A stretch of DNA of 64,000 nucleotides from an uncultured Actinomycetota bacterium (lineage in GTDB: Bacteria > Actinomycetota > Actinomycetes > Streptosporangiales > Streptosporangiaceae): assembly GCA_963846005.1 (NCBI GenBank), contig CAWJUH010000003.1, positions 803,992 through 867,991 on the forward strand, written 5' to 3'. Numbering within the stretch: position 1 is the stretch's first letter; the number at the start of each line of letters is the position of its first letter. A model generated the notes under the pieces. The model made no database searches. It was not told the origin of the DNA and saw nothing but the letters and a program-made list of their open reading frames with translations. Of the stretch, positions 7,486 through 25,977 are shown piece after piece. A program made the position numbers and the translations under genes.

Positions 7486-7911
7486 GCCAAGTTCCCGGCT
7501 CCCTGACGTCTGGACCTCGTGGGGTTGATCTGCTTGGCTCGTCTGCCAACGTCCGTGGGAGTCCACGAAGGAGCTAGGCGATTGTCACTCAGTTAGTCAC
7601 TCACTTCGGCACTGCCGGTGGAAGTGGTCACCTGCTTGCAAAGGTTGTGGCTGCACTCGCCTGACATACGGCTGCCCAGGTCAGGCGCTGTCGGACTTGC
7701 CCGTGAGTAACCGCGGCCGACTGCTAGCGGCCGTCCTAGCGGCACGCGGCGGGCACGACTGGCGATTTTCAAGATCGCTATGGCGCCGGTTTGGGTACTT
7801 GCCTGTGGCCTGCGCTGATGCCGCTAGGGCTGCCGAGCTCCGGCAAGCTCATCCCGTGCATATCCCGCACCTGATGAGCTGATCGGCGGCCGTGGCGGGA
7901 ACATAGCTGAC

Positions 7912-9124: not shown

Positions 9125-9556
9125 ATGGTCAGGATGATTATTGCGGTTTCGTCAGTATGCATGATTGCAGGCTGCGGGACAGCAGGCAATACAAGCCAAC
9201 CTTTGATGTCGCATAAAGCACATAAATTCATTACGGTTCCGACATCGTCAGCGCCGCCTGGCGCTCCAGGCCTGTCTGCCCTCACCAGAGGGCGTCTGGA
9301 GGCGGGCCGATTTAAGGGCAAGCCGTGTCTTTGGCTCGGGAACGGTACTCGCACGATGGCTGTTGTCTGGCCGCGAGGATTTAAAGCACGATGGCAGCGA
9401 GATAAGCTTGAGCTGCTGAATGCCCGGGGCAAGGTAGTTGCTGAGAGCGGCGAGATTATAAAGCTCGGGGGAGGAACGGCTCCTGCCCCGCAGGTCGCCT
9501 GCATGCTTGGTCATGAGCTAGCGTTCTACGCAAGCGGAGGCCCAGCGCGTGGCTAA
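9125..9556 (+). CDS. Putative lipoprotein (alternative start 9050)
   Basis: Signal peptide with lipobox MVRMIIAVSSVCMIAGC; lies in AT-richer island. Confidence 0.45.
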   Translation: MVRMIIAVSSVCMIAGCGTAGNTSQPLMSHKAHKFITVPTSSAPPGAPGLSALTRGRLEAGRFKGKPCLWLGNGTRTMAVVWPRGFKARWQRDKLELLNARGKVVAESGEIIKLGGGTAPAPQVACMLGHELAFYASGGPARG

Positions 9557-9575
9557 CGGCAGATGAGGCGATGCC

Positions 9576-10628
9576 TCATCCTACGGAAGTGCCGAAGAAC
9601 GAGTCGATGTTGCCTATTTGTTCATAGTAGCCGACGTGGCAATTGTCGCCTTGACTGTTACAGTCACCCCCTCCGATTGTAGTTCCGGCGATTTTGGCGC
9701 CGTTGCTGTCCCTCACAATCCATGGTCCTCCGCTGTCTCCTTCACTAACAACCGGAGTGTCGTCGTAGCCTGTGGATGTGACCCAGGCTCTGGTTATACC
9801 GTCGGAAAAGGCTACATACTGGTTGACACTTTGCACTGAGATGTCGTTTACTTCGCCCGTAAAGGCACTGTCTTGCGTGACCAAGTCGAAGGGCTGCGGA
9901 AAGGCAGTCCCGTCTTCAGCGTAGCTCGCCTGGCTTTTATCGCCCCCACTCCACACGTTCCATGAGTAGTTGCTGTTCGCGGAATTATGATCTATAAGCT
10001 CAGAATCGATGCAATTATTACAGAGCCGGACTTCAAAAACATTACCCATGTGCGGCCCGCCGGTCTGGCCAGACCTATCGCTTCTGTAAACATATTTATT
10101 AAGCTGCGGCTCGCAGTGACCAGCTGTTAGCATATAGTTATAACTGCCGATATGAACGATCGGTCCCCCGGTGCATTGGCTACTTGATGCGGGGATCAGA
10201 ATGAAGTCTCCTCCGAAGTATGGGGGCGTGTCATTTATCCGGTCTGCCGGTATGGGCCTGGGCATTGAAGTTTTTGAGACCACTACAGAATTACCGTACA
10301 GGGAATATAGTACATGAGCCGCCGCTTGGCTATAATGGGTGAGGCGAATTTCGACTTTGCCTGACCTGGGATCTGGACCCCACTGAGTCAGCTCTACACC
10401 TTTAGCTTTGAGGTTAGCCTCGCTGGCAGCGATGGATTGAGTAGTGACCTTATTCTGAGCCGACCCCCAGCCAAGCAAGGATGCCGGGTTGGGGTTATGG
10501 CCATCTCGCACTGTCTTCAGGCGAACCGACAGGGCTGCTGCCGACGTAGTTGCCATAGCAGGTCCGATCAGCAGGCAGGACACTGCAGAAATTGACACTG
10601 CAATTTTAACTAACTTAGGACTATTCAT
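9576..10628 (-). CDS. Secreted S1-family serine protease (chymotrypsin/streptogrisin-like)
   Basis: N-terminal signal peptide; catalytic His motif LTAGHC and Ser motif GDSGGP; visibly lower GC than flanks. Confidence 0.75.
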   Translation of the reverse strand: MNSPKLVKIAVSISAVSCLLIGPAMATTSAAALSVRLKTVRDGHNPNPASLLGWGSAQNKVTTQSIAASEANLKAKGVELTQWGPDPRSGKVEIRLTHYSQAAAHVLYSLYGNSVVVSKTSMPRPIPADRINDTPPYFGGDFILIPASSSQCTGGPIVHIGSYNYMLTAGHCEPQLNKYVYRSDRSGQTGGPHMGNVFEVRLCNNCIDSELIDHNSANSNYSWNVWSGGDKSQASYAEDGTAFPQPFDLVTQDSAFTGEVNDISVQSVNQYVAFSDGITRAWVTSTGYDDTPVVSEGDSGGPWIVRDSNGAKIAGTTIGGGDCNSQGDNCHVGYYEQIGNIDSFFGTSVG

Positions 10629-10971
10629 TACAGAATGATAAGTATTCAGGTCTCACAAGGCAAGACCCACAGGCCAGCTTCTTGCGCAACGCAGCTCTGC
10701 ATCGCTAGCAAAGACCTTCTGGCCTCGTCGCTGCGGAGACGCAACCCCCAGCCTTCTGATCCGTAGAGTGTGTCGGCCGTACGCGCGACCTGCCGTGTGC
10801 CGTCCGGGCAGCCATAACGGCTTTCGCTGGTGCGCATTGCTCGTCGCTATTGTGCGGTACTGTCCGGCCAGGATCCGGCCAGTCTCAGCCGGTGATCTCC
10901 TGGCGAGCGGGTGCGATCCCGGCTGCTGCACTTGCGTGCTCCACCAGCCGGCCTCGGCATACCGTGGGCCG

Positions 10972-11706
10972 ATGTTCGCTATTGAGGAACGAGAGCGAGT
11001 GCGGGGCCGTTTGCTGGAGCTGGCCGCCGCCGACCCCACCGTGAACGGAGCCGCGGTCACCGGCTCGCACGCGGCGGGCAGTTCCGACCGGTGGTCAGAT
11101 ATCGACCTGGCGCTCGCTATCCCCGGCTCGCTGGCCGCTTCGCTTGATCAGTGGACGGATGTGCTGACCCGGGATTTCGCCGCGGTGCATCACTGGGATC
11201 TTCGGTCAGGCTCGGCGGTGTACCGCGTGTTCTTGCTGCCGGGCTGGCTGGAGGTGGACATCGCGTTCATCCCGGCCGCTGAGTTCGGCCCGCTCGGACC
11301 GAACTGGCGCACTGTCTTCGGCGCCACCGTGCCGCTCGAACCATCCGGTCCGCCGGAGTTCAGCCAGCTAGCTGGCCTGGCCTGGCATCACGCCCTGCAC
11401 GCCCGAGTCAGCATGGAGCGGCAACGGTACCTGCAAGCTGAATACTGGATCGGCGCAATGCGCAGCCAGGTGATCGCTTTGACCTGCCTGCGGCTCGGGT
11501 ACCCGGACGCCCATGCCAAGACCGCGCACCGGCTGCCCGCCGATGTCACCGCCCGGCTGGCCAACACGCTCGTCAGATCGCTGGATCCGGCTGAGCTGCG
11601 CCGCGCCCTGGCCGCCGCCACGACAGCCCTGTCCGCCGAGCTTGAATACCCCAGTAATAGCCAGACCAGACGGCTGGACTCGATGCTGATCGAACGGACA
11701 CGCTGA
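10972..11706 (+). CDS. Nucleotidyltransferase domain protein (Pol-beta superfamily; possibly antibiotic NTase-like)
   Basis: GS-x10-DID signature (VTGSHAAGSSDRWSDIDLALAI); ATG at 10972. Confidence 0.55.
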   Translation: MFAIEERERVRGRLLELAAADPTVNGAAVTGSHAAGSSDRWSDIDLALAIPGSLAASLDQWTDVLTRDFAAVHHWDLRSGSAVYRVFLLPGWLEVDIAFIPAAEFGPLGPNWRTVFGATVPLEPSGPPEFSQLAGLAWHHALHARVSMERQRYLQAEYWIGAMRSQVIALTCLRLGYPDAHAKTAHRLPADVTARLANTLVRSLDPAELRRALAAATTALSAELEYPSNSQTRRLDSMLIERTR

Positions 11707-12004
11707 CCAGTTCCTTATCAGGCAAACCCGAGCACGCTTGCGACCATGGCCAACGTGGCCGCTGACCTGGGCGGACCGTCCCCGGCCGTCCGTGGCCGTC
11801 TGCCTGGTCGCGTGGTGATTGTTACGCAGTTGGTTACTCAGTCCGTGCCACGCCTCGATGCGCAAAGCATCTTGCCGTTAACGGCCCCGAAGGCCGCGCA
11901 AGGCTAGGCCTCCGATCTGCTGTCATGAATGCCCAGACAGTCGTTTGGTCCGCGACTGGTCCATGGCGGCTGACCGGGCCGTCGGCTGTGAAGACTATCG
12001 ACTG

Positions 12005-12487
12005 CTAGTCAGCCCGTTCATTGATACTCGCTATCTCTTCTACAAATCGCGATCTAAGCTCCGCCAAGGTTTGAGGCAGGCACGACTCATCACAGCGCTT
12101 CTTGGTCGCATTAGTTATGTAGGTGAACCAGCTGTAAACCGGATCCCTGCCATAATTAGGTATGATTGGGTCTTTCTGGAGATCTTTCCTGATTTGCGCG
12201 CTTGACACGCGACATTCAATGAACTTCTCTTGATTGACAGGGAGGCGCAGGCAACGCCACTTCCAAGATCCATTCGAAGAAACCACAACTGCAGGCCCGC
12301 CTATGTTTATCTCCCAAAAGGTGACAAGAGGTTCACGTTTCCCAAGGAACCGTCCAAATTCAATCGAAAGCTCGCTTAGGCACTTCGCGACTTCGTCGTA
12401 GTGGTACAGCAGACTGGCCACTGCACCCTCACGATCACGCTTCTTCTGCTCCAGCAGATCTAGTGCTTCATCCTCGATGCTCGGCAT
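12005..12487 (-). CDS. Hypothetical protein (low-GC cargo)
   Basis: 160-aa ORF in AT-richer island; no recognizable motif. Confidence 0.4.
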   Translation of the reverse strand: MPSIEDEALDLLEQKKRDREGAVASLLYHYDEVAKCLSELSIEFGRFLGKREPLVTFWEINIGGPAVVVSSNGSWKWRCLRLPVNQEKFIECRVSSAQIRKDLQKDPIIPNYGRDPVYSWFTYITNATKKRCDESCLPQTLAELRSRFVEEIASINERAD

Positions 12488-12864
12488 ACCCCATAACGTA
12501 AAGCACGGTCAGCACCCCCGCACGGGAGTCAAACGCGCAACTAACTGCTTAGGAGAACTTCAAGATCATCGATCCGACCTGTATTATTGCAGGTCATCGG
12601 CGGTTCCCATTGCGCATGAGTGCCCCTGAGGCAGCGGGTTTGCCTAGCACTGGGGCACGAACAGGGCACGACACCTGACCCTCTCGATGCGAACTCGCGG
12701 CCAGCCGGTCGATGATGGCGTTTGGGCAGGCCGCATGGTTGCTGACGGTCGCACCGGGAAAAATACGACTTTCGTCCGCTTCTGTCAAAGTTGTTTACTC
12801 TAGCAGCCCGCCAAGAAAACAAGTGTTGCTAGGCTTTTCATCGCCGTCTTTTAGGAGCAGAAAC

Positions 12865-13809
12865 TCAAGGCAGCGCAGAGTCTGCCGCGATATAGTAATA
12901 TTGAAGTATTCGTTCGCCTATTTCGGTGGGACTCCATTGCGTAGGGGACGTAAGGCCCACAGCGTCCCGTTCTGAGATTGCAGGCACAATTGGAGTCGAG
13001 TTATTGGCTGAGTAATATCCATGCGGAGAATGTGTATATGAGTCTGAAAGCGAGTCATTGCTTAGCTTTTTGGAATATTTCGCTAGCATGCTTGGAGAAT
13101 TATCGAATTGCTGCGCCAAGCCATGCCGCTGAAGCGTGGCGATCAGACTGGTCAGCACTTCTCGCAGTGAAGGTCTGGCTTCTTCAATTTGGTAGTTCGA
13201 CCATTTGCGCCGACCGATTGTCCAGCCGCTTCTGGTGAAATCTCCTGCAATGAACCCGTGGGGCCTAGTGTTGTGAATTGGAAATTTTTCATGCTTGATA
13301 GGACTGTCCTGTTTCCCGTCCTTCCCTTCGGATGGCACCCAGTTAACGATGAGCTCCAGTACAGATAGATGAGGGCGTTCCAAGTCTGCCATTGCAGGAA
13401 GGGCCAAATCAGCAAAGTATATCTGAGCTTCATCCGAAGCAATTAGGCCGCCCGCCAAGGCTCTGCCAAGTGCATGCACTTTAGGAGGCCAAGCCGTACT
13501 AGATGCCGAAGTCATCGCGTTCATTGCTATGAGCCGCGTACGTTCGGAAGCGTTAATCAGACCTGCGAGTTTCTCAGGGTCACACTCTGCCGCTATCGAG
13601 GCGCTGGTAAGCATTCCCTTAACTCGCCGTCGCGCGTCAGATCGGAATTCCCCCACGGCTTTGTTGAGGAAGTCCTCTAGATATGGACTGGAAAGTGCAC
13701 CAATTGCGATCCCATCGATTCCGCCTAGCCTTGCGCCTGCGACGACTGCGGAGGCATCAGCCACAGCTCTTATAAGGCGACTTGGTTCCTGATCCTCATC
13801 TGACGTCAC
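12865..13809 (-). CDS. Hypothetical protein (low-GC cargo)
   Basis: 314-aa ORF in AT-richer island; no recognizable motif. Confidence 0.45.
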   Translation of the reverse strand: MTSDEDQEPSRLIRAVADASAVVAGARLGGIDGIAIGALSSPYLEDFLNKAVGEFRSDARRRVKGMLTSASIAAECDPEKLAGLINASERTRLIAMNAMTSASSTAWPPKVHALGRALAGGLIASDEAQIYFADLALPAMADLERPHLSVLELIVNWVPSEGKDGKQDSPIKHEKFPIHNTRPHGFIAGDFTRSGWTIGRRKWSNYQIEEARPSLREVLTSLIATLQRHGLAQQFDNSPSMLAKYSKKLSNDSLSDSYTHSPHGYYSANNSTPIVPAISERDAVGLTSPTQWSPTEIGERILQYYYIAADSALP

Positions 13810-14404
13810 AGGGCATAGCCTAATCCGTCTTGACGATGATTCGAGCTCTCTCGATGGTTATCCGACTCAGCCACAGCTTCCCCGTCCTCCCTGGTAGGTG
13901 CCGAGATCTTGCCGGGGAAGGTCGCAGTCAAGGGGCGGCGCGTGCGCCGATCGCGTAGCGACGCGCCCTTGGGCGCGCCCTTTACTGTGACCTTTCTCCG
14001 GTGAGAGGATGCCCGGCGTGTGGAGGACGGCTCCTTCCGCCACACTGCGGGCTGCGCGTGGGCTATCCGTGCCGGGTGTTCGTGGCGGCCGGGCTGTGGT
14101 GCGGGCCGGGGCGGGGCGGACCTGCCTTGCGGCAGTTGCCCGCGCCGTGCCTCCCCAGGCTAAGGCAGCGGGCAGAACTGCCGCCCCGGCGCAGACAGTA
14201 GCCCCGCCACCCGGCACGCTGACGCCAAGGCGCCCTTGCTGCTTTTACTCGACGCGCTGCTCGGCTCAGGCTTTCGTGCGTGCCTGGCCGTCGGCGCCGG
14301 GCCGGGGTGCGGGCCGTCTGGCGCGCCCGCAAGGGCGTGCCCTTGAAGCTGTAGAGAAAATCGTCACAGTTCACAGGCACTAATTCGATGAAGCATTCGA
14401 CTGG

Positions 14405-15586
14405 TCAGGCGAGTGGAGGGCTAGGCCCGTCGCCTCCGATGGTGGTTCCTGTCGGCCATAGCTTCTCCAGCTCGGCGGGCGTGAGCGGATCCCGGTAAGC
14501 GGCTTGCAGGACACTGCGCCAGGCGTCGGCGGGCGCTTGCGCGAGCTGGGTGAACCAGTCAATGCCGGCGGGATAAGACCACTGGTAGGACCGCAGCAAG
14601 GGGTCTGCTCCCCGGTCAGTGAGCATGTCAGCGATCTCGGCTTCCGTCCAGAACGGAACATGGCCGCTCGCATAGGCGGCGCACTGGTCGATGCTGGCTC
14701 CGGAGTTCACCGCGATGTGCAGGGCCGCCCGTACGAGCTGGGTGTAGTGATCGATCCGGACTCTGGTCATCAGCAGCTTGTCGTCCGGCGCGACGAACAG
14801 CGGCAGCGTCTGGCCGAGTCCTTCCAGCAGTACCTGCTGGGGTGCGTGTACCGACAGCAGCCGGACCCACGGCACTGGACCGGCCGCGCAGCGCTGGGCG
14901 TAGCTGGCTCCCTGGAGACCGTGGCCCAGGATCTCGTGCAGGGCGAACTGGCGGGCGTGAGCTTCGGTGAACCGGGCTTCTTTGAGGTTGAGGCGCAGTC
15001 GAACGTCCGGTCCGCTGCCGTCGGTCCAGAAGGCCCAGTAGGCGTTGACGGTGGTGGTCTCGATGGTCAACTCATACGGCGCGGTGGCTCCCGTAAGTTC
15101 CCGGACGACCGGCTCGTATCTGAGGGCCGCGTCCCCGATGGCACCGGGGGCATCGGATGCGTCGATCGGCCTTTCGATGTGTTCCTGGTCTTTGCGGGTG
15201 CGGGCGTTCCAGCCGATGCCAAGGTCGGCCAGCTGGCGGCGTGCCAGCTCTCCTGCGTGCTGGATGTAGTCCTCAGGCCAGCCCAGGGCGTGACAGCCCT
15301 GGGTGCCGAAGATGTAGCTGTCCAGGTCGGCGCGCTGGCCCATCAGCTCCCGTAGGTAGAGCAGATGAGCCCCGGTCCGCTCGGCCAGCATCGGTTCGCC
15401 GCTGGCCTCGGCTTGCTGCTTCAATGCCGCTAGCCGTTGGTAGGTGGTCAGCCGGTCAGCAGGCTTGATGTCCTCGCTCGCGGACTGCGGGTGGCAGTCG
15501 TAGTCGATCACGGCGGGCGCACCGCGCGCCAGCTCGTGTTCGTGCCAGGCCCGCAACGCCCGCTCGATCTGGTCACGAAGCGGCAC
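14405..15586 (-). CDS. Putative zinc metallopeptidase (HExxH motif; DUF1704/ImmA-IrrE-like gluzincin is a guess)
   Basis: FALHEILGHGLQ motif; 393 aa; 14-nt overlap with the upstream gene. Confidence 0.45.
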   Translation of the reverse strand: MPLRDQIERALRAWHEHELARGAPAVIDYDCHPQSASEDIKPADRLTTYQRLAALKQQAEASGEPMLAERTGAHLLYLRELMGQRADLDSYIFGTQGCHALGWPEDYIQHAGELARRQLADLGIGWNARTRKDQEHIERPIDASDAPGAIGDAALRYEPVVRELTGATAPYELTIETTTVNAYWAFWTDGSGPDVRLRLNLKEARFTEAHARQFALHEILGHGLQGASYAQRCAAGPVPWVRLLSVHAPQQVLLEGLGQTLPLFVAPDDKLLMTRVRIDHYTQLVRAALHIAVNSGASIDQCAAYASGHVPFWTEAEIADMLTDRGADPLLRSYQWSYPAGIDWFTQLAQAPADAWRSVLQAAYRDPLTPAELEKLWPTGTTIGGDGPSPPLA

Positions 15587-16727
15587 TATCGGTATCCCAT
15601 CTCAGCTCAACGATCTGCCCGGGCCGCAGGTAGTCCGCGGCCAGGGTCAGGCTCACGCCGTGGTCATCGTAGTCCCACAGCAGCCCCTCGCTGACCGGCA
15701 TTTCCGACCCATCCGGCCGCTCGACCGTGGCCGCGCATTCGCTGAGCCGCTTGATATTCAGGTGCCGGACCCGCAGCGTGTAGTGGCGGGTGTAGCGCGG
15801 CATCGTTTGCCGCCAGTACCACTCGTCATGAAATGACCCGCCCTCGCACGTATACCGGATCACCGTGCGCTCTCCCGGTCCGAGCGGCGGCGAGATCTTG
15901 AACGCGAACTTGGCCAGCGATCCCGCGTCGTGAATGCGCTGGATCACCACGGCCCGGTCGTTGTGCTTGGTCGCCTTGATGACAATCGGCGCGTAGGTGT
16001 ACTGGAACCAGACCTCACGCGGCATGCGCACGAGTGGCTGCTCACCGAGATTGAGCAGATCATGCTCATATAGCACGTGCACCCGGCCGTGATCATCGAT
16101 CTCCAGGCTCAGGCTCAGCTCCAGCTCGACCACGTTGCCCGCCAGCGCGGCGAGCTGCCGGGTCTCAGTGTCCGACAACCGGAGCTGGCGGCTCAGCTCG
16201 ACTAGCCGCTTCCCTAGCTTCCGGGCACTGACGCTGTCCTGATCGCGCACATAATCGCTGATCGCGCTGGCCACTATCTGACGCGCACCGACAGTCCGGT
16301 CATCGGCGCCGGTTGGCCCCCATGCGGGCGGTGAGGTATCCGGCTGCCGCAATCCGGTATCGATCGCGCCCAGAACCTGTCCGATGTCCTTGCGCGCCAG
16401 CGCGCCCTGCCCACGTGACCCGGCCAGATCACCGTCATTGCTACCTGCGGGCTGGAAAAGCTGCGCAATCGTCCAGTCGGGAAACATCACCTCCAGCACC
16501 CGGCAATGGTGAGAGAAAGGCAGCCGTTTCACACTCCCGGACAGCCAGCGCTGATACTGCGCCCGGCTCGGAGACGACCCAGCCAGATCCGGGTCCACCA
16601 CGTGAGCGGCCTTGTCGTACTCCGCGCAGAACGTCGCATACGACTGCCAATGACGCTGTTCTAGCAGGACCTTCAACCGGATCGGCGATGACTTCACGCT
16701 GCCCTCCCGTGATGTCTCAGCTATCAC
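15573..16727 (-). CDS. Hypothetical protein with possible N-terminal HTH (XRE-like) region
   Basis: 384 aa; N-terminus IRLKVLLEQRHWQSYATFCAEYDKAA resembles an HTH; divergent from the + strand operon starting at 16900. Confidence 0.4.
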   Translation of the reverse strand: MIAETSREGSVKSSPIRLKVLLEQRHWQSYATFCAEYDKAAHVVDPDLAGSSPSRAQYQRWLSGSVKRLPFSHHCRVLEVMFPDWTIAQLFQPAGSNDGDLAGSRGQGALARKDIGQVLGAIDTGLRQPDTSPPAWGPTGADDRTVGARQIVASAISDYVRDQDSVSARKLGKRLVELSRQLRLSDTETRQLAALAGNVVELELSLSLEIDDHGRVHVLYEHDLLNLGEQPLVRMPREVWFQYTYAPIVIKATKHNDRAVVIQRIHDAGSLAKFAFKISPPLGPGERTVIRYTCEGGSFHDEWYWRQTMPRYTRHYTLRVRHLNIKRLSECAATVERPDGSEMPVSEGLLWDYDDHGVSLTLAADYLRPGQIVELRWDTDSAAS

Positions 16728-16899
16728 CCCACCCTACCAAGGATGAGACATCTATGCGACATGGCGCACGCGGAAGAGGCGGAAACGACTCCCTACGACA
16801 CAACGGCGCAACACGGGCTTGGCTAATGCTCGTGTCATGGCCAGAAAGGCCAACCACGAGTCAGCCCAGCCAAAGGGTTGCCGAAGGAGAGGCAAGATC

Positions 16900-17238
16900 A
16901 TGCGACTTCTGATCGACACGAGCAGCGTCCAGTTTCGGGTGGCCGGTATGCCGAAGGAGCGTCCGGACTACAAGGACAAGGAGCGGCAGGCGACCACGCG
17001 CGAAGGGCAGCCGATCTGGACGGTGCGCCTGGACGCGATCGACACCGTGCGGGAGACCAAAGAAACCATCTGGGTCGAGGTGGCTGGCAACGAGCCCAAG
17101 CTGACCTTCGATGGCTTCGCCTCGGTCACCGGCCTGGTGTTCGCACCGTGGGTCGGGCGTGACGGCAAGATCCGCCGCTCATTCCGCGCCGACACCGTCG
17201 AGCCCGCCCCGGCCGCGAAGGCCGTGCACGCGGCCTGA
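16900..17238 (+). CDS. Hypothetical protein, first gene of AICE transfer/replication operon
   Basis: ATG at 16900 with GAAGGAGAGG RBS. Confidence 0.5.
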   Translation: MRLLIDTSSVQFRVAGMPKERPDYKDKERQATTREGQPIWTVRLDAIDTVRETKETIWVEVAGNEPKLTFDGFASVTGLVFAPWVGRDGKIRRSFRADTVEPAPAAKAVHAA

Positions 17239-17295
17239 GCCGTCCCCGGCCAGGCGGAACCATCCCCTACCTCGCGATCAGACCAAGGAGACCCC
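17227..17295 (+). promoter_or_regulatory. Conserved intergenic module copy 1 (box CCCCTACCTCGCGA plus AAGGAGA RBS)
   Basis: Shares a 30-40 bp core with copies at 17665..17755 and 18745..18829. Confidence 0.5.
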
Positions 17296-17661
17296 ATGAC
17301 CAGCATCCGCATCACCGGAATCGACTCCAGATTCGACGACCTGACCCCGGCGGAGTTCCCGCCGCTGCCGATCGGCGCGCTTGTCGCCGGGACGCTCAAC
17401 CTGCTGGAGGAATCCGGAGGGCTGCCCCAGCCGGTGTACCTCACCGTGTCCGACTCGCAGTCGGTGGATCTGCTGTTCGCCCCCGACCCGTCCAGCCTGC
17501 GGGCTATCGCCCGGTGGGCGATGCGCTTCGGCGGCGTCATGACCAGTGAGCCCCACCGGGGCAAGAGCGGCCCGGAGACCTGGTGCCGCGTCCAGTTCGA
17601 CTACTACGGCGTGGCCGTCTGTGCCTTCGCCCACATCCCGGTCTGCGCGACCACGCTCTGA
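17296..17661 (+). CDS. Hypothetical protein
   Basis: ATG preceded by AAGGAGA within a conserved intergenic module. Confidence 0.5.
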   Translation: MTSIRITGIDSRFDDLTPAEFPPLPIGALVAGTLNLLEESGGLPQPVYLTVSDSQSVDLLFAPDPSSLRAIARWAMRFGGVMTSEPHRGKSGPETWCRVQFDYYGVAVCAFAHIPVCATTL

Positions 17662-17664
17662 TAC

Positions 17665-17755
17665 CCGGTGCCGGGCTGGAGGGCTGCCATCCCCCCCGTC
17701 CCGGCCAGCCACCACCCGATCCCTACCTCGCGAACGACGATCAAGGAGAACTGTT
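17665..17755 (+). promoter_or_regulatory. Conserved intergenic module copy 2 (nested hairpin plus box plus RBS)
   Basis: gccgggctggagggctgccatccccc...cccggccagcca...tccctacctcgcgaa...aaggagaact. Confidence 0.5.
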
Positions 17756-18739
17756 ATGCCAGCAAACGTCGAGTCCATGTTCTCGGTCCGCCAGATGCCC
17801 TGGCACCGGGAAGGCACCGTCCTCGCGGATTACCCCGGCGACTGGGCCGAGGCCCGCAAGCTTGCCGGGCTGAACTGGGACCCGGTGACCACCGGGGTCT
17901 ACGCCTTCACTGGCATCAACATTGACGCCACCACGCACTACGAGCCGATCGAGGGCTGGCAGTGCATCATCCGCTCCGATACCGGGGCCGTCCTGTCCAT
18001 CAACCGCGATACCTACACCGTGATCAACCACGGCGCGATGGGCGAGATCGTCGAAGCCGTCCTCGCCCAGCCCAACGTGAAGTGGGAGACCGCCGGGGTC
18101 CTGGACGGCGGCCGGTCGGTGTGGTGCCTGGCCCTGCTCGACGAGCCCGTCGAGCTGCCCGGCGATGACAGCCCGACCCTGCCCTACCTGGCGATCACCA
18201 ACCGGCACGACGGCACCGGCTCATGCGCCCTGCGGGCCACCGCGGTCCGCATCGTCTGCGCCAACACCTTCCGCGCCGCCGAACTCGAAGGCGAACGGAC
18301 CGGCGCCACCTTCTCGTTCATCCACAAGTCGAGCTGGCGAAACCGGATCGAGGAAGCCCGCCGCGCCGTCACCGGCGCTCAGGCCGAGATGCGCCGCTAC
18401 ACCGAACTCGCCCGAGAACTGCTGGCCATCCCCATCACCGGAAAGCAGCGGGAGCTGTTCATCACCGAATTCATTCCCAAGCCTCCCGAGGGGCTGATCA
18501 CCGACCGGGTGGCCCGCAACGTCGAGGAAGCCCGCAGCGCGCTGCGGCTGCTCTTCCAGTCCACCACCAACGAGCAGATCGCCGGTACCGCCTACGGCCT
18601 GGTCCAGGCCGCCGGGGAGTACCTCGATCATGTCCGCATCGCGCGGTCCTGGGAGACCCGGCTCAACCGGACCCTGATCCGGCCCGAGCCGCTCAAGCAC
18701 CGCGCATTGTCCCTGGCTCGAGAGGTCACCACCGCCTGA
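17756..18739 (+). CDS. DUF932 / phage-plasmid-like protein (TIGR03299-like)
   Basis: ATG at 17756 preceded by a conserved module with AAGGAGA; ~327 aa; typical ICE/AICE neighbourhood. Confidence 0.5.
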   Translation: MPANVESMFSVRQMPWHREGTVLADYPGDWAEARKLAGLNWDPVTTGVYAFTGINIDATTHYEPIEGWQCIIRSDTGAVLSINRDTYTVINHGAMGEIVEAVLAQPNVKWETAGVLDGGRSVWCLALLDEPVELPGDDSPTLPYLAITNRHDGTGSCALRATAVRIVCANTFRAAELEGERTGATFSFIHKSSWRNRIEEARRAVTGAQAEMRRYTELARELLAIPITGKQRELFITEFIPKPPEGLITDRVARNVEEARSALRLLFQSTTNEQIAGTAYGLVQAAGEYLDHVRIARSWETRLNRTLIRPEPLKHRALSLAREVTTA

Positions 18740-18744
18740 CAGCA

Positions 18745-18829
18745 AGATGCCGGGCTGGGGGACTGCCATCCCCCGGCCCGGCCAGCCAGAACCATCCCCT
18801 ACCTCGCGAAAAGCAAAGGAGAACTCGGC
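18745..18829 (+). promoter_or_regulatory. Conserved intergenic module copy 3 (nested hairpin plus box plus RBS)
   Basis: gccgggctgggggactgccatcccccggcccggccagccagaaccatcccctacctcgcgaaaagcaaaggagaact. Confidence 0.5.
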
Positions 18830-19063
18830 ATGTCCGATCCTACCTTCCCCGCCCCCGGCCGGGTGGTCCTCGACTGGCGGCGCGGCCAGATCGGCCCGCT
18901 CGCCCCGTGCGTGATCTGCGGGCGGCTGGCCATCTGCCGCTCCCCGGGCAAGAACGCGCCCTGCCACAAGCGGTGCGCCGAAACCTGGATCACCACCCAC
19001 GCCAGCCCGCGTGACCAGCGCAGGCTGATCCGCGCCAACACTCCGCGAGGTGGTGCCAGGTGA
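18830..19063 (+). CDS. Small Cys-rich protein
   Basis: CVICGRLAICRSPGKNAPCHKRC; preceded by conserved module. Confidence 0.45.
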   Translation: MSDPTFPAPGRVVLDWRRGQIGPLAPCVICGRLAICRSPGKNAPCHKRCAETWITTHASPRDQRRLIRANTPRGGAR

Positions 19064-19443
19064 GCGGCTTCCGGGTCATCTACCACGCGACCGTCTGTCC
19101 CGACTGCGGATCAGATGAGGTCACCGAGCACGACATCGTCATGACTGACGGCACGGCCGAGACCGCGCTGACTTGCGGCCAGTGCGGCGCAGCATGGCCG
19201 GTGGCCTGCGTCGCTGAGAACCTACAGCCCGCTAGCCCCGACCCGGCATGCGCACCGCACCTGGCCTTGCGGATCGACGCCAAACCGCCCGGCACTGCCG
19301 CTGAGCACCGCCGCTACTGGTGCCCCCGCTGCGACGCCTACCTGACCGGCACGGAACTGGCCACCACGAGCGCGTTGCACTACACGCCCGGCCCCGACCG
19401 CATCATCACCCGCGCCGATCTCACCCCGGCAGGCCGGTCATGA
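19060..19443 (+). CDS. Zinc-ribbon-containing hypothetical protein
   Basis: CPDCGS...CGQCG and CPRCD motifs; start overlaps upstream stop. Confidence 0.45.
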   Translation: MSGFRVIYHATVCPDCGSDEVTEHDIVMTDGTAETALTCGQCGAAWPVACVAENLQPASPDPACAPHLALRIDAKPPGTAAEHRRYWCPRCDAYLTGTELATTSALHYTPGPDRIITRADLTPAGRS

Positions 19444-19835
19444 CCGCCCGCGTCCCCGCCCTCGACGCTATCCAGGCCCGCGGACTGCGGGTGGTGTCCT
19501 ACGACCCGGACGGCAGCCGGCACGGCCTGCCCACTTACCCCTGGCGATGGGCACCCGCTGGGCTGCTCACCCGCCGCCAGCTCCGCGCCAAGGGCCTGCG
19601 CCCCGGCGGCCAGGAAATCTGTGCGCAGATCCTGTGGCGCCGCGGCAAGCGCGTCGCCTACCTCTACGCCGAGCAACTCGCCCTGCCCAAGCGCACCGCG
19701 ACCGCCGCGCAGCTCGCCGCGGTCGCCAAGGCCCTGACCGCCCGGCGCACCTGCCCGGCCTGCGGCCAGCTCAAGTCCTACTACATCCCCCGATCCACCG
19801 GCGAATGCCTCAACTGCACCCCCGGAAGGCGGTGA
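19440..19835 (+). CDS. Hypothetical protein with C-terminal CxxC...CxxC motif
   Basis: ATGA start/stop overlap with upstream gene; RRTCPACGQ...ECLNC. Confidence 0.45.
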   Translation: MTARVPALDAIQARGLRVVSYDPDGSRHGLPTYPWRWAPAGLLTRRQLRAKGLRPGGQEICAQILWRRGKRVAYLYAEQLALPKRTATAAQLAAVAKALTARRTCPACGQLKSYYIPRSTGECLNCTPGRR

Positions 19836-19841
19836 CACCCG

Positions 19842-20531
19842 ATGTCCGCGAACACCCCTGGCCGTGGCACTGGCCGTAACCGGCGCGCCAGCAGCCCCTA
19901 CATCATCGATGACCTGTTCGTCACCATGCACCGCTCGGCCGCCGGAACGGCCTGGCGGTGGCGCACCGAACTCACCCTCCTCACCGCAACCATGGCGCTC
20001 GGATGGCGACTGACGGTGATCATGACTTTCACCTGGGCCGCGATCACTATCGCTGCGGGCCTGGCCGTCGTGCTGGCGCTGCCGCCAACCCGGCGGTTCA
20101 CGGTGCGCCGGTTCTGGTGCGTGCTGGCCCGCCACCGGCTGCACAAGCTGTGCTGGGAAGCCCACCTGCATACCCGCTCCGGCAGGCTGCCGCTGATCTT
20201 GTGGACCCGGCCGACCAAGGTCGGAGAACGGGCCTGGATCGTGTGCCGGGCCGGGATCTGCGCCGAGGACTTCGAGAACAACCTCGGCGAGATCCGCTCC
20301 GCCTGCTACGCCCGCGACGCGCGGGTCACCAGCAACACCCGCTGGTCCCACCTGATCACCGTCGATGTGATCCGCCGCGACACCCTCGCCGCCCGCCACC
20401 AGGTGGCATCACCCCTGCCCCGCCTGCCCCGGCCCGCGCCGGACCCGCAGGCCAGTTCCCGGCGGCCGTCGTGGCCCGACCGGCCCGCCCTGCCCGGCCC
20501 CGACACGGCCGACATCATCCCCATCCGCTAG
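19842..20531 (+). CDS. Membrane protein (Spd/Tra N-terminal-like)
   Basis: Hydrophobic segments (LTLLTATMALGWRLTVIMTFTWAAITIAAGLAVVLAL). Confidence 0.45.
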   Translation: MSANTPGRGTGRNRRASSPYIIDDLFVTMHRSAAGTAWRWRTELTLLTATMALGWRLTVIMTFTWAAITIAAGLAVVLALPPTRRFTVRRFWCVLARHRLHKLCWEAHLHTRSGRLPLILWTRPTKVGERAWIVCRAGICAEDFENNLGEIRSACYARDARVTSNTRWSHLITVDVIRRDTLAARHQVASPLPRLPRPAPDPQASSRRPSWPDRPALPGPDTADIIPIR

Positions 20532-20602
20532 CAGGCCTGGCCCGGCCCTCCCCCTGCGGCGGGCCGGGCCAGCCAGCCCACCTTTTGAAGGAAGTGATCC
20601 TT

Positions 20603-21436
20603 ATGACCACCACCCTGATCCCGCCGCTGGCCTCCCTGGCGGTGCCGGTGTTCCCGCTGTCGATCTGGCAGCCGGTGCACCTGGGCATGGACGAGCACGG
20701 CGACCAGGTCCACGTCGACCTGGCCGAGCGGAACATGCTGCTGGGCGGCGAACCCGGCGGCGGCAAGTCCAACGGCCTCAACCTCATCACCGCCCACGGC
20801 GCCCTGTCCGGCGACTGCAAGCTCGTCCTCATCGACGGCAAGCAAGTCGAACTCGGCGCCTGGCGGCACTGCGCCGACACCTTCGTCGGCCCGTCCATCA
20901 CCGACGCGATCGACTGCGGCAAGTACCTCCAGCAGATCATGAACACCCGCTACGACGCCCTGCTCGCCAACGGGCTCCGCAAGATCACCCCGGAGACCGG
21001 CGAGCCGGTCTACCTGGTGATCATCGACGAATACGCCTACTTCTCCGCCACCGTCGGCACCAAAGCCCAGCAGGCCGAGTACTCGGCGCTGACCCGGGAT
21101 CTGGTGGCCCGGGGCCGGGCCGCCGGGGTGATCGTCATCCTGGCCACCCAGCGGCCCTCGCATCAAGTAATCGACCCCTCGCTGCGGGACCTGTTCGGCT
21201 ACCGGTGGGCCTTTCGCTGCACCACCGACAGCTCCTCGGATGTGGTGCTCGGCCAGGGCTGGGCCACCGCGGGCTATTCCGCCGCCACCATCGACCCGCT
21301 CGCTCGCGGGGTGTCGTGGCTGCTGTCGGAGACCGGCGAGCCCCGGCGAATCAAGGCCGCCTACCTGGCCGACGCCGAAATTGCTTACCTCGCCACCTGG
21401 GCCGCCCAGCTCCGCCGCAAGGAGCCCGTGCCGTGA
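20603..21436 (+). CDS. tra: FtsK/SpoIIIE-family DNA translocase ATPase (TraSA/TraB-like conjugal transfer protein)
   Basis: Walker A GGEPGGGKSN, Walker B LVIIDEYA; RBS GAAGGAAGTGA. Confidence 0.7.
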   Translation: MTTTLIPPLASLAVPVFPLSIWQPVHLGMDEHGDQVHVDLAERNMLLGGEPGGGKSNGLNLITAHGALSGDCKLVLIDGKQVELGAWRHCADTFVGPSITDAIDCGKYLQQIMNTRYDALLANGLRKITPETGEPVYLVIIDEYAYFSATVGTKAQQAEYSALTRDLVARGRAAGVIVILATQRPSHQVIDPSLRDLFGYRWAFRCTTDSSSDVVLGQGWATAGYSAATIDPLARGVSWLLSETGEPRRIKAAYLADAEIAYLATWAAQLRRKEPVP

Positions 21437-22902
21437 CCATCACCACATCGGCGTTCCCTCTCAGCCCCGGCTCAGATGATGGTCCGGGGCTGGGAGAGTC
21501 CGCCGAGCCCGCGATCACCCTGACCTGGGCCGAACTCGACGCTGAGATCCGCCAGGCCGAGCGCACCGGCCTGTGCGCCCACCCCATCCGGCTCAAGGGC
21601 CGCATCGACGCGGTAGACCTGGCCACCGGCGAGCTGCGCCCGATGTATGACACCGGCAGCGAACCCGGCGGCGTACTGCACGTCGCGTGCGGGAACCGGC
21701 GCGAGTCCGCCTGCCCGGCCTGCTCCCAGACCTACAAACGCGATGCCCGCCAGCTCGTCAAGACCGGGCTCGCAGGCGGCAAGGGCATCCCCGAGACCAT
21801 CACCGCCCATCCGTGCGTGTTCGCCACCTTCACCGCCCCCTCCTTCGGCCCGGTGCACTCCCGGCGCAAGCGCGGCAAGACGATCCTGCCCTGCCGCCCC
21901 CGCCGCGACGCCAGCCGACGGGCCTGCCCACATGGCCGCGACATCTCCTGCGCTCACCGCCACGCCCAAGACGACCCGCTGCTCGGCCGGGCGCTGTGCC
22001 CGGACTGCTACGACTACACCGCCGCAGTGCTGTTCAACGCTCACGCGGGGGACCTGTGGAAACGGTTCGTCACCTACCTGCCCCGCCACCTGGCCCGCCA
22101 CGCCGGGCTCACCCAGCGCCAGCTCCGCCGCCAGGCATCCGTGCGGTTCGTCAAGGTGGCCGAGGGTCAAGCCCGCGGCGTCATCCACTACCATGCCGTC
22201 ATCCGCCTCGACCGACCCGGCGAGAGCTACCAGCCGCCCGGCCCGGCCTTCACCACCGCCCTGCTCGACCAGGCCATCCGCACCGCCGCTGCCGCCGCCC
22301 GGTTTCCGGTCGGCCCCAGCCCAGACCACCCGGACGCGCCCGCCCTCACGCTGCGGTTCGGCGCGCAGGTCCACGTCCGGCCGATCCGCCGCGACCACGA
22401 CCGGCAACTCCCCGCCACCGGCCACGAGCTGCCACCCCAGGCTGTGGCCAACTACATCGCCAAGTACGCCACTAAGGACATCGAAGCCCCCGGCCTCCCC
22501 TCCGCGCGGATCACCACCCGCCACGACCTCGACCAGCTGCACTGCGCAAGCCACTACCGGCGCATGATCACCGCGGCGTGGGAGCTGGGTGGCGGCAAGC
22601 TCACTCCCGGCACCCGGCCGTCCCGGCTGTGCCGCTGGGCGCACCAGCTCGGCCACGGCGGCCACTTCCTCTCCAAGTCCCAGCGGTACTCGCTGACTTT
22701 CGGCCAGCTCCGCCGCGCCCGCACCCAGCACCGCAAAGCACAGCGCCACCCCGAAGGCCCCCGCGACCCCTGGGACCGCCCCATCAACGAGACCACCGTC
22801 CTGGTCCTGTCCACCTGGACCTACGACGGTCCCGGCCAGCCCATCACTTCCGGCGCTGACCTGGCCCTCGTATCAGCCGACCGAGCGCGAGCCCACGAAT
22901 AG
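21433..22902 (+). CDS. rep: RepSA-like rolling-circle replication initiator (HUH endonuclease)
   Basis: GTG start overlapping tra stop; HUH motif VIHYHAVIRLD and Tyr motif YIAKYATK; Cys clusters. Confidence 0.65.
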   Translation: MTITTSAFPLSPGSDDGPGLGESAEPAITLTWAELDAEIRQAERTGLCAHPIRLKGRIDAVDLATGELRPMYDTGSEPGGVLHVACGNRRESACPACSQTYKRDARQLVKTGLAGGKGIPETITAHPCVFATFTAPSFGPVHSRRKRGKTILPCRPRRDASRRACPHGRDISCAHRHAQDDPLLGRALCPDCYDYTAAVLFNAHAGDLWKRFVTYLPRHLARHAGLTQRQLRRQASVRFVKVAEGQARGVIHYHAVIRLDRPGESYQPPGPAFTTALLDQAIRTAAAAARFPVGPSPDHPDAPALTLRFGAQVHVRPIRRDHDRQLPATGHELPPQAVANYIAKYATKDIEAPGLPSARITTRHDLDQLHCASHYRRMITAAWELGGGKLTPGTRPSRLCRWAHQLGHGGHFLSKSQRYSLTFGQLRRARTQHRKAQRHPEGPRDPWDRPINETTVLVLSTWTYDGPGQPITSGADLALVSADRARAHE

Positions 22903-22946
22903 CTGACCTCCGCCCGACTACGCATCTGCCGAAAGGAAGTGATCCC

Positions 22947-23156
22947 ATGGATCCCATTGCTGCCCAGCTCACGGGCAGGCAGCTTTACAAGATCACGGAC
23001 GCCATGACTGTGCTATCGATGAGCCGCAGCGTCATCTACGAGCAGATCCGTTCCGGTCGCCTGCGCTCGGTCACCCAGGGCCGCGCTCGGCTCATCCCCG
23101 CCTCGGCGATTGCCGAATACATCGCGCTTCTTGAACAAGAATCGCAGGTCGCGTAA
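22947..23156 (+). CDS. xis: Excisionase / DNA-binding HTH (Xis)
   Basis: 69 aa, LYKITDAMTVLSMSRSVIYEQIRSGRL; immediately upstream of int. Confidence 0.65.
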   Translation: MDPIAAQLTGRQLYKITDAMTVLSMSRSVIYEQIRSGRLRSVTQGRARLIPASAIAEYIALLEQESQVA

Positions 23157-24301
23157 TGGCCGTCCGGCGTAGCCGAGGCGACGGCGGTCTCTACTGGGAC
23201 AAAACCCGCCAACGGTGGATTGCGGAAGTCACGGTCGGATACACACCGGGCGGCAGACGGATCGTCAAGAAGGCGAGCAACCGCACCAAGACAGCCGCAC
23301 AGCGGAAGCTGAAAGAGATCATCCGCGACTACGACGATGGGCTCGCCACCGGGCCGCACGGCTATACCGTGGCCCAGGCCGTCAGCGATTGGCTGGCATT
23401 CGGGCTAAGTGGCCGTGACCCTGCCACAGTCGGCAAGTGCACGATCCTGGCCAACACCCATGTCCTACCTGCCCTAGGCGCTCGCAAGCTGCGCGACCTC
23501 TCTGCCGATGACGTGGACCGCTGGATGGCGGACAAAGCTAAGACGCTGAGCACTAGGACTCTGCAGGAGGTCCGCTCCGTTCTCAAGCGCGCGATCACCC
23601 GCGCCCAGGCCCGCGACAAGGTGAAGCGCAACGTCGTGCTGCTGTGCGAGGTCCCGCAGGGCCGCGCGGGACGGCCGTCGAAATCCCTGACGTTCGCGCA
23701 AGCCGAGGCGTTGCTGGCGGCGGCAGATGGCAGCGATCTGTACGCGTACATCACCCTGTCGCTTCTGATCGGCGCCCGCACCGAGGAACTGCGGGCACTT
23801 ACCTGGTCGCATGTCGATCTTGACGGCGATCAACCTGCGATTATGGTCTGGCGCTCGGTGCGAGCTGGCGGTGACACCAAGACCAGGAAGTCACGCCGGA
23901 CGCTGGCGCTACCTCAGCGTTGCGTGGCCGCGCTGCGCGATCACCGGGCGCGGCAAGAGCAGATCAGCCGGGCAGCTGGCAGCAACTGGCAGGACAACGA
24001 CCTGGTTTTTCCTTCTCGGGTCGGCACGCCCGCTGATGCCTCCCATGTCCGCCGGTCCTTCCGCCGTGTCGTCCAGGCGGCCAGGCTCGACCCGGGGGAG
24101 TGGACGCCGCGTGAACTGCGGCACAGCTTCGTGTCGCTGCTCTCCGATGCTGGCGTCCCGATCGAGCAGATTTCCCGGTTGGTCGGCCACAGCGGGAGCG
24201 CGACTACAGAGATGATCTACCGGAAGCAAATCCGGCCAGTGATCGAACATGGGGCAGACGCCATGGATCGGATCTTCCCCGCCGAGGTCCGCGATGCTTA
24301 G
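23156..24301 (+). CDS. int: Tyrosine integrase (pSAM2 Int-like)
   Basis: R...HxxR (LRHSFVSLL) and LVGHSGSATTEMIYRK catalytic Tyr region; adjacent to tRNA-Pro. Confidence 0.85.
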   Translation: MAVRRSRGDGGLYWDKTRQRWIAEVTVGYTPGGRRIVKKASNRTKTAAQRKLKEIIRDYDDGLATGPHGYTVAQAVSDWLAFGLSGRDPATVGKCTILANTHVLPALGARKLRDLSADDVDRWMADKAKTLSTRTLQEVRSVLKRAITRAQARDKVKRNVVLLCEVPQGRAGRPSKSLTFAQAEALLAAADGSDLYAYITLSLLIGARTEELRALTWSHVDLDGDQPAIMVWRSVRAGGDTKTRKSRRTLALPQRCVAALRDHRARQEQISRAAGSNWQDNDLVFPSRVGTPADASHVRRSFRRVVQAARLDPGEWTPRELRHSFVSLLSDAGVPIEQISRLVGHSGSATTEMIYRKQIRPVIEHGADAMDRIFPAEVRDA

Positions 24302-24370
24302 TCACTCAGATAGTCACTCAGCGCTCATCGGAGCGAGTCCAATTTCGGTTGATAATTGCTCTGACCTGGG

Positions 24371-24444
24371 TCGGGGTGGCCGGATTTGAACCGGCGGCCT
24401 CTTCGTCCCGAACGAAGCGCGCTGCCAAGCTGCGCCACACCCCG
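24371..24444 (-). tRNA. tRNA-Pro (anticodon CGG)
   Basis: Manual cloverleaf: acceptor CGGGGTG/CACCCCG, anticodon loop TTCGGGA, T-arm GCCGG-TTCAAAT-CCGGC; CCA not encoded. Confidence 0.85.
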
Positions 24445-25443: not shown

Positions 25444-25899
25444 ATGCCTGAACTCAAGGACCGGCTGCGTGCCGACCTGACCGCCGCGATGAAGGACCGG
25501 GACGAAGTGCGCACCAGGACGCTGCGCAGCGCGCTCACCGCGATCACTCACGCGGAGGTGGCCGGGAAGTCGGCCCGCGAGCTGAGCGACGCGGACGTGC
25601 TGCAGGTGCTGGTCCGGGAGGCCAAGCGCCGCCGCGAGGCCGCGGACGCCTTCGAGCAGGCAGGCCGCGCCGGTCAGGCGGCCGCCGAGCAGGCCGAGAA
25701 CCGGGTGCTGTCGGTGTACCTGCCCGAGCCGCTCACCGACGCCGAGCTGCAGCAGATCGTGACCGCCGCCATCGCGGAAACCGGCGCGTCCGGCCTGCCG
25801 GGCATGGGCCAGGTCATGAAGACCGTGACCCCGCAGACCACCGGCCGCGCCGACGGCGGCCGGGTCGCCGCCGAGGTCCGCCGCCAGCTGTCCGGCTGA
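25444..25899 (+). CDS. GatB/YqeY domain protein
   Basis: MPELKDRLRADLTAAMKDRDEVRTRTLRSALTAI... Confidence 0.65.
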   Translation: MPELKDRLRADLTAAMKDRDEVRTRTLRSALTAITHAEVAGKSARELSDADVLQVLVREAKRRREAADAFEQAGRAGQAAAEQAENRVLSVYLPEPLTDAELQQIVTAAIAETGASGLPGMGQVMKTVTPQTTGRADGGRVAAEVRRQLSG

Positions 25900-25948
25900 G
25901 CCCGCCGCCAGCTGTCCGGCTGAGCCCGCCGCCAGCCGTCCGGCTGAG
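25877..25948. repeat. 3 tandem copies of a 24-bp unit spanning the stop codon of the GatB/YqeY gene
   Basis: cccgccgccagctgtccggctgag x3 (last with one mismatch). Confidence 0.8.
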
Positions 25949-25977
25949 GCCGCCGGGCAGGCCGGCCCGGCCGGGCC

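Follow-up and report, generated by a model that had tools for sequence, protein, structure and literature searches.

Short antisense RNAs are known to control translation in several plasmid systems. In hok/mok/sok, an antisense RNA acts against the start region of a small leading or overlapping open reading frame (ORF), the translation of which is needed for the translation of a downstream membrane protein. In the CopA/CopT system of R1 (tap, repA) and in the countertranscript RNA (ctRNA) II of pMV158, the leader of a key operon is opposed by a short antisense RNA, which has a stem-loop at its end (PMC12361487 for pMV158). Countertranscript regulation is a known kind of control; it does not yet appear to have been described in integrative and conjugative elements of actinomycetes (AICEs). 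As carriers of gene flow in antibiotic-producing actinomycetes, these elements are of major importance, and their regulation is known through proteins only, namely the KorSA/Kor repressors, the Pra activator and the Pif Nudix protein; no RNA regulator or antisense RNA of AICEs was found described in the AICE reviews and papers searched. Here, a 64,000-nucleotide stretch of contig CAWJUH010000003.1 (assembly GCA_963846005.1, an uncultured Streptosporangiaceae bacterium), referred to below as the window, was analysed. It carries a pSAM2-type AICE in which an intergenic module is found three times, each time before a gene of the operon (Table 1).

The 13-mer CCCTACCTCGCGA, called the box, had three exact occurrences in the window, all on the + strand, and was matched in none of 100 dinucleotide-preserving shuffles. 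Each box was followed 6-9 nt downstream by AAGGAGA and then by an ATG start codon, at 17296, 17756 and 18830. Hence, the triplicated box, ribosome-binding site and ATG before three genes that an earlier note on this DNA had reported were confirmed, as were its gene starts and its assignment of the region to an AICE. The nested hairpin that the note had seen in copies 2 and 3 was perfect in copy 3, with a stem of 14 bp, and folded there by itself at -32.9 kcal/mol; in copy 2 it was degenerate and contained mispairs, and its loop included the copy-3 loop sequence CTGCCA. Copy 1 retained 31 of the 33 nt of CCCGGCCAG..GAACCATCCCCTACCTCGCGA of copy 3 (conserved segment 17245-17277, CCCGGCCAGGCGGAACCATCCCCTACCTCGCGA) and was missing the 5' arm. 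The core sequence proposed as common to all copies held overall, except that copy 1 reads CCGGCCAGGCG, with two positions different from the CCGGCCAGCCA of the note. Folding, which had been suggested as a check of the hairpin, bore it out: the copy-3 gap with its hairpin and leader (18740-18832) gave -41 kcal/mol (z -3.1). A near-match to the box, CCCTACCTGGCGA (window 18182-18194), had one mismatch and lay inside the DUF932 gene. It was rejected as an extra site and put down to chance: its codons are those of the conserved LPYLAIT motif, and relatives differ freely at the synonymous positions.

A small cis-antisense RNA that would limit the translation of early and transfer genes was proposed, for which the module would supply both the gene and the targets, and this proposal was given an about even chance of being right. 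Antisense transcription from TAGGAT (18842-18837) would begin near the start codon, at 18831, cross the complements of the ribosome-binding site and of the box, and end at the hairpin, at 18739. The RNA would then pair with the translation-initiation region of the sense mRNA, the first contact probably being a loop-loop contact at the hairpin, and the pairing would either block ribosome binding or trigger cleavage. The 13-mer box would be the complement of the 3' half of the first stem-loop of the RNA and the core of the pairing region. At copy 3, the ribosome-binding site and the start codon of the 77-aa gene would be masked, and because the genes from 18830 to the TraB/RepSA region overlap, one RNA would gate the whole transfer/replication chain. 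The earlier note overlooked such a possible antisense RNA, the variable leader nature of the 13-mer and the span of the module into the first codons.

The module was followed into other genomes through the DUF932 protein, which had more than 1000 close relatives (83-91% identity), mainly in soil metagenomes and in Streptosporangiaceae metagenome-assembled genomes; this number and origin of relatives suggest that the module is ecologically widespread. One part of the sample consisted of 44 related loci (L numbers below) from species-representative genomes, and the other came from metagenome and viral contigs that were searched with the pattern GCCGGGC-N18-26-GCCCGGCCAGCCA, about 45 matches being true modules and the others chance matches in coding DNA. 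The combined set comprised 87 modules, all oriented with the operon, and conservation in other genomes was thereby established. In 82 of the 87, the stop codon of a co-directional upstream ORF lay 2-14 nt (mode 9) before the module. The stop codon came first and was separated by about 9 nt from a 14-bp GC hairpin, after which stood CAGCCA (replaced by CCACCA in one lineage), a C-rich leader (C 0.465, G 0.13), the ribosome-binding site and the start codon, and the module as a whole extended from the upstream stop codon through the first 5-6 codons of the downstream gene. The distance from the hairpin to the start codon was 48.1 +/- 2.2 nt in the main class (n=54) despite the diverged leader sequence. 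CCCTACCTCGCGA itself was found to be one lineage's form of the variable C-rich segment, other forms including CCCTGCCTCGCGA, CCCCATCTCGCGA, CCCTACCCGCGAA and TCCCTCATCCCGT. The module was most widespread at the position of window copy 3, where it occurred at nearly every locus; additional copies were limited to some lineages and stood before DUF932, the 121-aa gene or a gene starting MDPDAN...

The stop-to-start distances were also inspected for a recoding, read-through, frameshift or selenocysteine insertion sequence (SECIS)-like signal. This candidate was rejected: the 85 distinct gaps showed no frame bias (30/24/31 by distance mod 3), and the stops were not TGA alone (TGA 61, TAA 18, TAG 6). 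The earlier note did not recognise the module as a described element, and nothing was found to change that view. No match was obtained among the 4227 Rfam covariance models for window 16000-20000 on both strands at E up to 5, apart from three chance-level matches to eukaryotic and archaeal families; nothing comparable turned up in the literature searched, and no similar DNA was found among 72,556 plasmid records. A hairpin with the same outer stem and CAGCCA recurred on two IMG/VR contigs (L048 3561-3602 and L049 1004-1041), where the leader after it was short and C-rich and led to a ribosome-binding site and a start codon. These contigs are classed as viral, and the module or its hairpin may occur beyond this AICE family.

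Between the window and locus L001, CAGCCA and the box were identical at 19/19 positions, as compared to 73% of the 4-fold degenerate sites of the adjacent gene (P = 0.002), and the comparisons with L007 and L119 had a similar outcome. It was concluded from these alignments that the module is evidently under purifying selection, in agreement with the suggestion of a conserved, reiterated regulatory feature of the operon. Pairing in the hairpin was retained in 96.4% of cells across the family, with 6 pairs changed on both sides, for example GGGGGA:TCCCCC, GGAGGG:CCCTCC and GGAGGA:TCCTCC. None of 500 shuffles matched the observed values, and slid controls paired at 29-64%. Thus, the hairpin is, by its compensatory changes, evidently a true paired structure. 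The loop varied from 4 to 8 nt among the copies, and a bulge was present in some of them and absent in others.

These stem data bear on the repeated operator that was suggested in the earlier note, that is, on a double-stranded DNA site. In this view, a regulator encoded by the element would bind the inverted repeat, the box or both, which would serve as an operator or as a promoter that depends on an activator. Copy 1 has CCCGGCCAG...box without the 5' arm, the CCCGGC-TACCTC spacing of 17 nt is promoter-like, and some box variants are common to the copies of one element (L007, L160, L028), all of which would suit a protein-binding site. However, compensatory stem changes are not expected of such a site, and with the variable loop and bulge the spacing of the half-sites is not fixed. 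The box variants form a continuum rather than discrete specificity classes. A sigma-70-type promoter on the + strand was rejected, as the scan found no promoter-like site and relatives have TGCCTC or CATCTC for TACCTC, so that the A of the candidate -10 hexamer is lost. Moreover, the predicted oligonucleotide/oligosaccharide-binding (OB) fold of the Pra homologue encoded at the head of the operon suits a single-stranded nucleic acid rather than double-stranded DNA. The operator therefore fitted poorly, and a DNA site of this kind was considered improbable. An attenuator switch in which the box would pair with the 5' arm of the hairpin was tried as well and was rejected, since by eye the C-rich core did not covary with the type of inner stem.

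Signals on the opposite strand were read from the opening of the downstream gene. The gene that follows the main module class opens M-[S/F]-H-A-[T/I] (GGC RTG TYY CAC GCT AYC), and this opening was fused to at least four unrelated proteins. Among 60 distinct main-class copies, A8, T12 and A13 were the best-conserved coding positions (0.97-0.98), positions 9-11 being more variable. On the minus strand these positions read TANNNT, which was present in 58 of the 60 copies and preceded by a TGn extension in 51. TANNNT is the actinobacterial -10 consensus. The hexamers found were TAGCGT, TAACGT, TAGCCT, TAATCT, TAGGAT, TACGAT, TAGAGT and TAGGCT, in which T, A and the final T were constant. The third position of codon 4 was T in 98% of the copies while the amino acid was A, V, P, I, R or S; third-position T occurred at 3-8% at codons 5-9 and at 3.1% at the 4-fold sites of DUF932. 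In a competing sense-strand hairpin, T12 could form a G.U pair only, and C would pair better. It was concluded that the conservation of the first codons evidently acts on the nucleotides and not on the amino acids. If the antisense RNA exists, it would explain why unrelated AICE genes have common first codons: as these codons would house the promoter, their portability across unrelated proteins is expected.

A -35-like ATGAC(C/G/A) stood 17 nt upstream of the -10 element in 22 of 24 sequences of the subgroup with a 13-codon ORF described below, when 6.8% was expected at random. The string ATGAC-N18-TAGCGT occurred once per locus in 23 loci, antisense to the module each time. ANNNTA was found within the first 30 nt in 0/16 copies that stand before other genes. 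A rare codon, a second oddity at the nucleotide level, was also noticed in this region: GTA (Val) stood at codon 12 in 16 of 63 distinct main-class sequences (in L027, for example, some 33 nt past the start codon at 3997), in a genome with approximately 92% G or C at 4-fold degenerate sites. This codon falls where the antisense -35 element would sit.

The downstream end of the predicted RNA was examined by counting T in the 10 nt past the hairpin. Over the 87 copies, the mean was 3.37 on the minus strand and 0.28 on the + strand, with a background T of 0.158. Term-seq mapping of 3' ends in Streptomyces shows 3-4 U in the same stretch (PMC12207403). A canonical intrinsic terminator on the sense strand was rejected, since the hairpin was present and yet 68 of the 87 copies had no T in the next 10 nt of the + strand. 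Two distant relatives from Streptomyces, L022 and L024, had a canonical intrinsic terminator in the first 60 nt past the DUF932 stop codon, formed by an unrelated hairpin with TTTTCTCAT after it.

The fold of the leader was judged by per-sequence z-scores, because the leader alignment was unreliable for column-based covariation. The leader segment had a mean z of -2.0 on the minus strand (20/20 negative) and of -0.92 on the + strand. The minus-strand architecture was alike in four lineages with barely alignable leaders, and a closing helix and a terminator were predicted in both subgroups. In this fold, the stretches complementary to the start region (CAUGCC) and to the invariant CAGCCA pair with each other, and within the inner stem the anti-Shine-Dalgarno CUCCUU pairs with the G-rich complement of the box through many G.U pairs. 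For the window, the 5' stem-loop was predicted to pair CUCCUUU with GAGGUAGGGG, the box complement, and to be followed by the terminator hairpin and the tail AUCUUGCUGU.

Part of these data could be ascribed to an intercistronic RNA element of the sense strand. The mRNA hairpin would then be a partial terminator or attenuator, or a protective end left after processing, and the G-poor leader with its strong ribosome-binding site would be an optimised initiation region, the duplicated copies setting the relative expression of the cistrons. The position of nearly all modules just past a co-directional stop codon and the composition of the leader agree with it, as do the unrelated strong hairpins that fill the same gap in related elements and the T-tailed hairpin of L022 and L024. 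One-sided changes in a hairpin at the start codon preserve G.U pairs on the + strand, and in Streptomyces, 3' ends are often located at stable hairpins that have few U (PMC12207403). The module resembles the GC-rich terminators of actinomycetes in its very stable hairpin, scarce U and location near a gene end (PMC12207403); it differs from them in that its sense strand is essentially free of U past the hairpin and that its stem, flanks and spacing are conserved beyond the needs of a terminator. In addition, a sense-strand element leaves TANNNT in codons 3-5, the -35 element at 17 nt, the element-specific loops and the stronger minus-strand fold unexplained. Taken as the whole explanation, it was regarded as unlikely. 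The attenuator or processing site of the earlier note may exist on the sense strand, though the opposite-strand -10 element, the U tails and the loops alike within an element fall outside it. A sense-strand role as attenuator, 3'-end protector or 5' stabiliser is plausible and would be compatible with the antisense model, in which the sense hairpin could be the target stem-loop of the RNA.

Loops were identical in 15 of 20 pairs of copies within an element and in 7.4% of pairs between elements, and the identity within an element persisted where the stems differed. Element-specific loops of this kind would be expected if they determine a kissing interaction. Inside the AICE, copies 3, 2 and 1 were predicted to be the best + strand partners of the RNA. 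Since copies 1 and 2 have retained the loop, CAGCCA and the box and are without the antisense promoter, this RNA would act on them in trans, and through the triplication a single regulator would control the 121-aa gene, DUF932 and the transfer chain. Concerted evolution of the leaders was not upheld: a permutation test gave 0/2000, a value confounded by lineage structure, and orthologous copies were more alike (0.724) than copies within an element (0.697).

The mobility of the module could also make it an evolutionary by-product, a junction sequence at which cassettes are swapped by homologous recombination and which is kept alike by gene conversion, with copies 1 and 2 being non-regulatory. 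The module was found before at least 6 gene families, the same first 5-6 codons were fused to four unrelated proteins, the extra MDPDAN... gene had a module on each side, and the subgroups differed in gene order. Against this, the box and CAGCCA are more conserved between elements than 4-fold sites, and gene conversion alone would homogenise stems and loops together, when in fact the stems differ and the loops are identical within an element. This explanation was held to be very improbable.

Somewhat less credit still was given to a single-stranded DNA signal, by which the hairpins would act, perhaps with Pra, as single-strand origins or primosome sites in the strand displaced by RepSA rolling-circle replication. 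RepSA is encoded by the element, one subgroup has one copy per element, and all copies have a single orientation, which single-strand origins require (PMC4595007). However, a replication signal would not be expected to stand at a constant 48 nt from start codons or to be coupled to ribosome-binding sites, and a single hairpin of about 35 nt is far simpler than the described multi-stem single-strand origins (PMC4595007). The loops vary between elements, and the antisense promoter signals would be left without explanation.

Several observations weigh against the antisense RNA. No recognisable -35 element was found in the lineage of the window, the TAGGAT of window copy 3 has no TGn extension, and a consensus scan at the window site flagged neither a promoter nor a terminator. 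The minus-strand U tail is modest and under the threshold of that scan. In one subgroup, a sense-strand hairpin enclosing the start codon could partly account for the conservation of codons 3-5. The evidence from wobble pairs on which strand is folded was mixed: the minus strand was more stable in 37 of 55 distinct hairpins, an edge due in part to an extra loop-closing pair, and the + strand is favoured by the T.G junction pair of window copy 3. As the sequences have common ancestry, the counts of conserved copies exaggerate how many independent events there were. The ranking of copies 1 and 2 among the predicted targets is partly circular owing to the sequence that they share with copy 3, and gene conversion rather than selection could yield loops and boxes that are alike within an element. 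The test of leader identity within and between elements was confounded by lineage structure.

After weighing these points, a cis-encoded antisense RNA was taken as the simplest model that would cover all the signals and as the best fit to them, with the chances for and against it being judged about equal. It would account for the constant length of the module, the portability of the first codons, and the loop and box variants that are common within an element. We also considered a wider and more doubtful version, in which the RNA would be the master negative regulator (an RNA 'Kor') of an AICE family widespread in soil actinomycetes. It would act in cis and in trans, its loop and box would define specificity groups, and its gene would double as a junction for cassette exchange. 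Specificity groups of this kind among co-resident elements would be comparable to plasmid incompatibility or phage immunity. If a conserved antisense RNA does gate the early and transfer genes, it would be a new layer of AICE control. More generally, a motif that recurs in intergenic gaps may be the imprint of an RNA encoded on the opposite strand.

The predicted RNA compares with CopA in being complementary to a translation-initiation region. It has no sequence relationship to CopA or ctRNA II, its host is an actinomycete AICE rather than an enterobacterial or streptococcal plasmid, and, as predicted, its promoter would lie inside the first codons of the regulated gene and its target module would be reiterated. 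The parallel is close in the subgroup in which the module and the first codons lead a 13-codon ORF (MFHATNxxAAGHV), the stop codon of which overlaps the ATG (cATGTGTAG) of a membrane protein starting MCRPPCCNNAGG. This ORF was located in L016 (6536-6577) and at the same place in L011, L012, L015, L017, L019, L029, L032, L036, L039, L040 and L042. By analogy, the arrangement is of the leader-peptide or translational-coupling type, as in tap-repA or mok-hok, and a coupled ORF of this kind makes the parallels with both CopA/CopT-tap and hok/mok/sok close. In contrast to hok/mok/sok, the downstream protein (MCRPPCCNN..., several predicted membrane helices) is no known toxin, and the window itself has no mok-hok-like arrangement, the module there standing before the gene of a 77-aa Cys-rich protein. 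It was also observed in this subgroup that the ORFs ending just upstream of the module (e.g. L016 5891-6442) have acidic tails (...DDEAPF, ...DEQPF, ...GGHAPF), which we take to resemble the C-terminal tip of bacterial SSB proteins.

Two repeat families of actinobacterial mobile elements are outwardly similar. The repeated GC-rich cis motif on a conjugative actinomycete element recalls clt and its TraB recognition sequences (TRS), and GCCCGGC presumably resembles the published 8-bp TRS motifs. The clt locus consists of clustered direct 8-bp repeats (PMC4447253, PMC4170104), whereas the AICE copies are single hairpins about 0.5-1 kb apart that are tied to start codons; as single inverted repeats 450-1080 nt apart, they were rejected as a clt locus. 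The start-associated sequences (SAS) of Cluster K mycobacteriophages are asymmetric 13-bp repeats that stand in one orientation just before many start codons; a subset (ESAS) is preceded by an inverted repeat with a consensus that differs by subcluster, and their function is unknown (PMC3203893). The likeness lies in a 13-bp repeat of an actinobacterial mobile element, in some cases with an upstream inverted repeat. The ribosome-binding site is part of the SAS, which stands 3-7 bp from the start codon, while the AICE box lies about 20-30 nt upstream and is separate from the ribosome-binding site, at 6-15 nt from AAGGAGA. Departures from the ESAS repeat do not support RNA pairing (PMC3203893), in contrast to the compensatory changes of the covarying AICE stem, and no sequence similarity was found between the two.

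Table 1. Coordinates of the AICE, genes of its operon, the three module copies and the predicted antisense signals in the window.
Feature	Position	Strand	Remarks
Module copy 3	18740-18829	+	hairpin 18749-18782, CAGCCA 18783-18788, box 18797-18809, ribosome-binding site 18816-18822
Predicted cis-antisense RNA, ~93 nt	18739-18831	-	minimum free energy -50 kcal/mol, z -3.15, 0/200 shuffles
Predicted antisense -10 element TAGGAT	18837-18842	-	within codons 3-5 of the 77-aa gene
Module copy 2	17662-17755	+	hairpin 17670-17705, CAGCCA 17706-17711, box 17721-17733, ribosome-binding site 17743-17749
Module copy 1	17239-17295	+	box 17265-17277, ribosome-binding site 17285-17291; no 5' hairpin arm
AICE, pSAM2 type	7442-24409	+	attL 7442-7482, attR 24369-24409, tRNA-Pro(cgg)
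Pra-like protein gene (SCO3933 family)	16900-17238	+	first of operon
121-aa gene, function not assigned	17296-17661	+	3' of module copy 1
DUF932 (TIGR03299-like) gene	17756-18739	+	3' of module copy 2
77-aa Cys-rich gene	18830-19063	+	led by module copy 3

The AICE is bounded by an exact direct repeat of 41 nt, which makes up the 3' part of tRNA-Pro(cgg), and its + strand gene row closes with an FtsK/TraB-like protein, RepSA, an HTH_17 excisionase and a tyrosine integrase. The product of the first operon gene matched the SCO3933 family at E 3.7e-11, under the curated cut-off, and its predicted fold was an SSB/PriB-like OB fold. SCO3933 is a Pra homologue (PMC8584621), and by this match the product is evidently a homologue of the pSAM2 activator Pra. 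The three module gaps were the sole intergenic gaps from the pra gene to the excisionase gene; the remaining genes overlap, and beyond 19063 the overlaps run from the 77-aa gene to the TraB/RepSA region.

The left part of the AICE (window 8000-14000) had a G+C content of 0.53-0.61 as compared to approximately 0.70, and contained long ORFs, most of them on the minus strand, that matched nothing in Pfam, NCBIfam or PHROG. This part is probably recently acquired cargo. Just beyond the AICE, two tandem repeats were observed, one of 24 nt x3 at 25856-25951 (GCCGCCAGCTGTCCGGCTGAGCCC) and one of 12 nt at 26002-26049 (ATTGCCGCCCCC-like).

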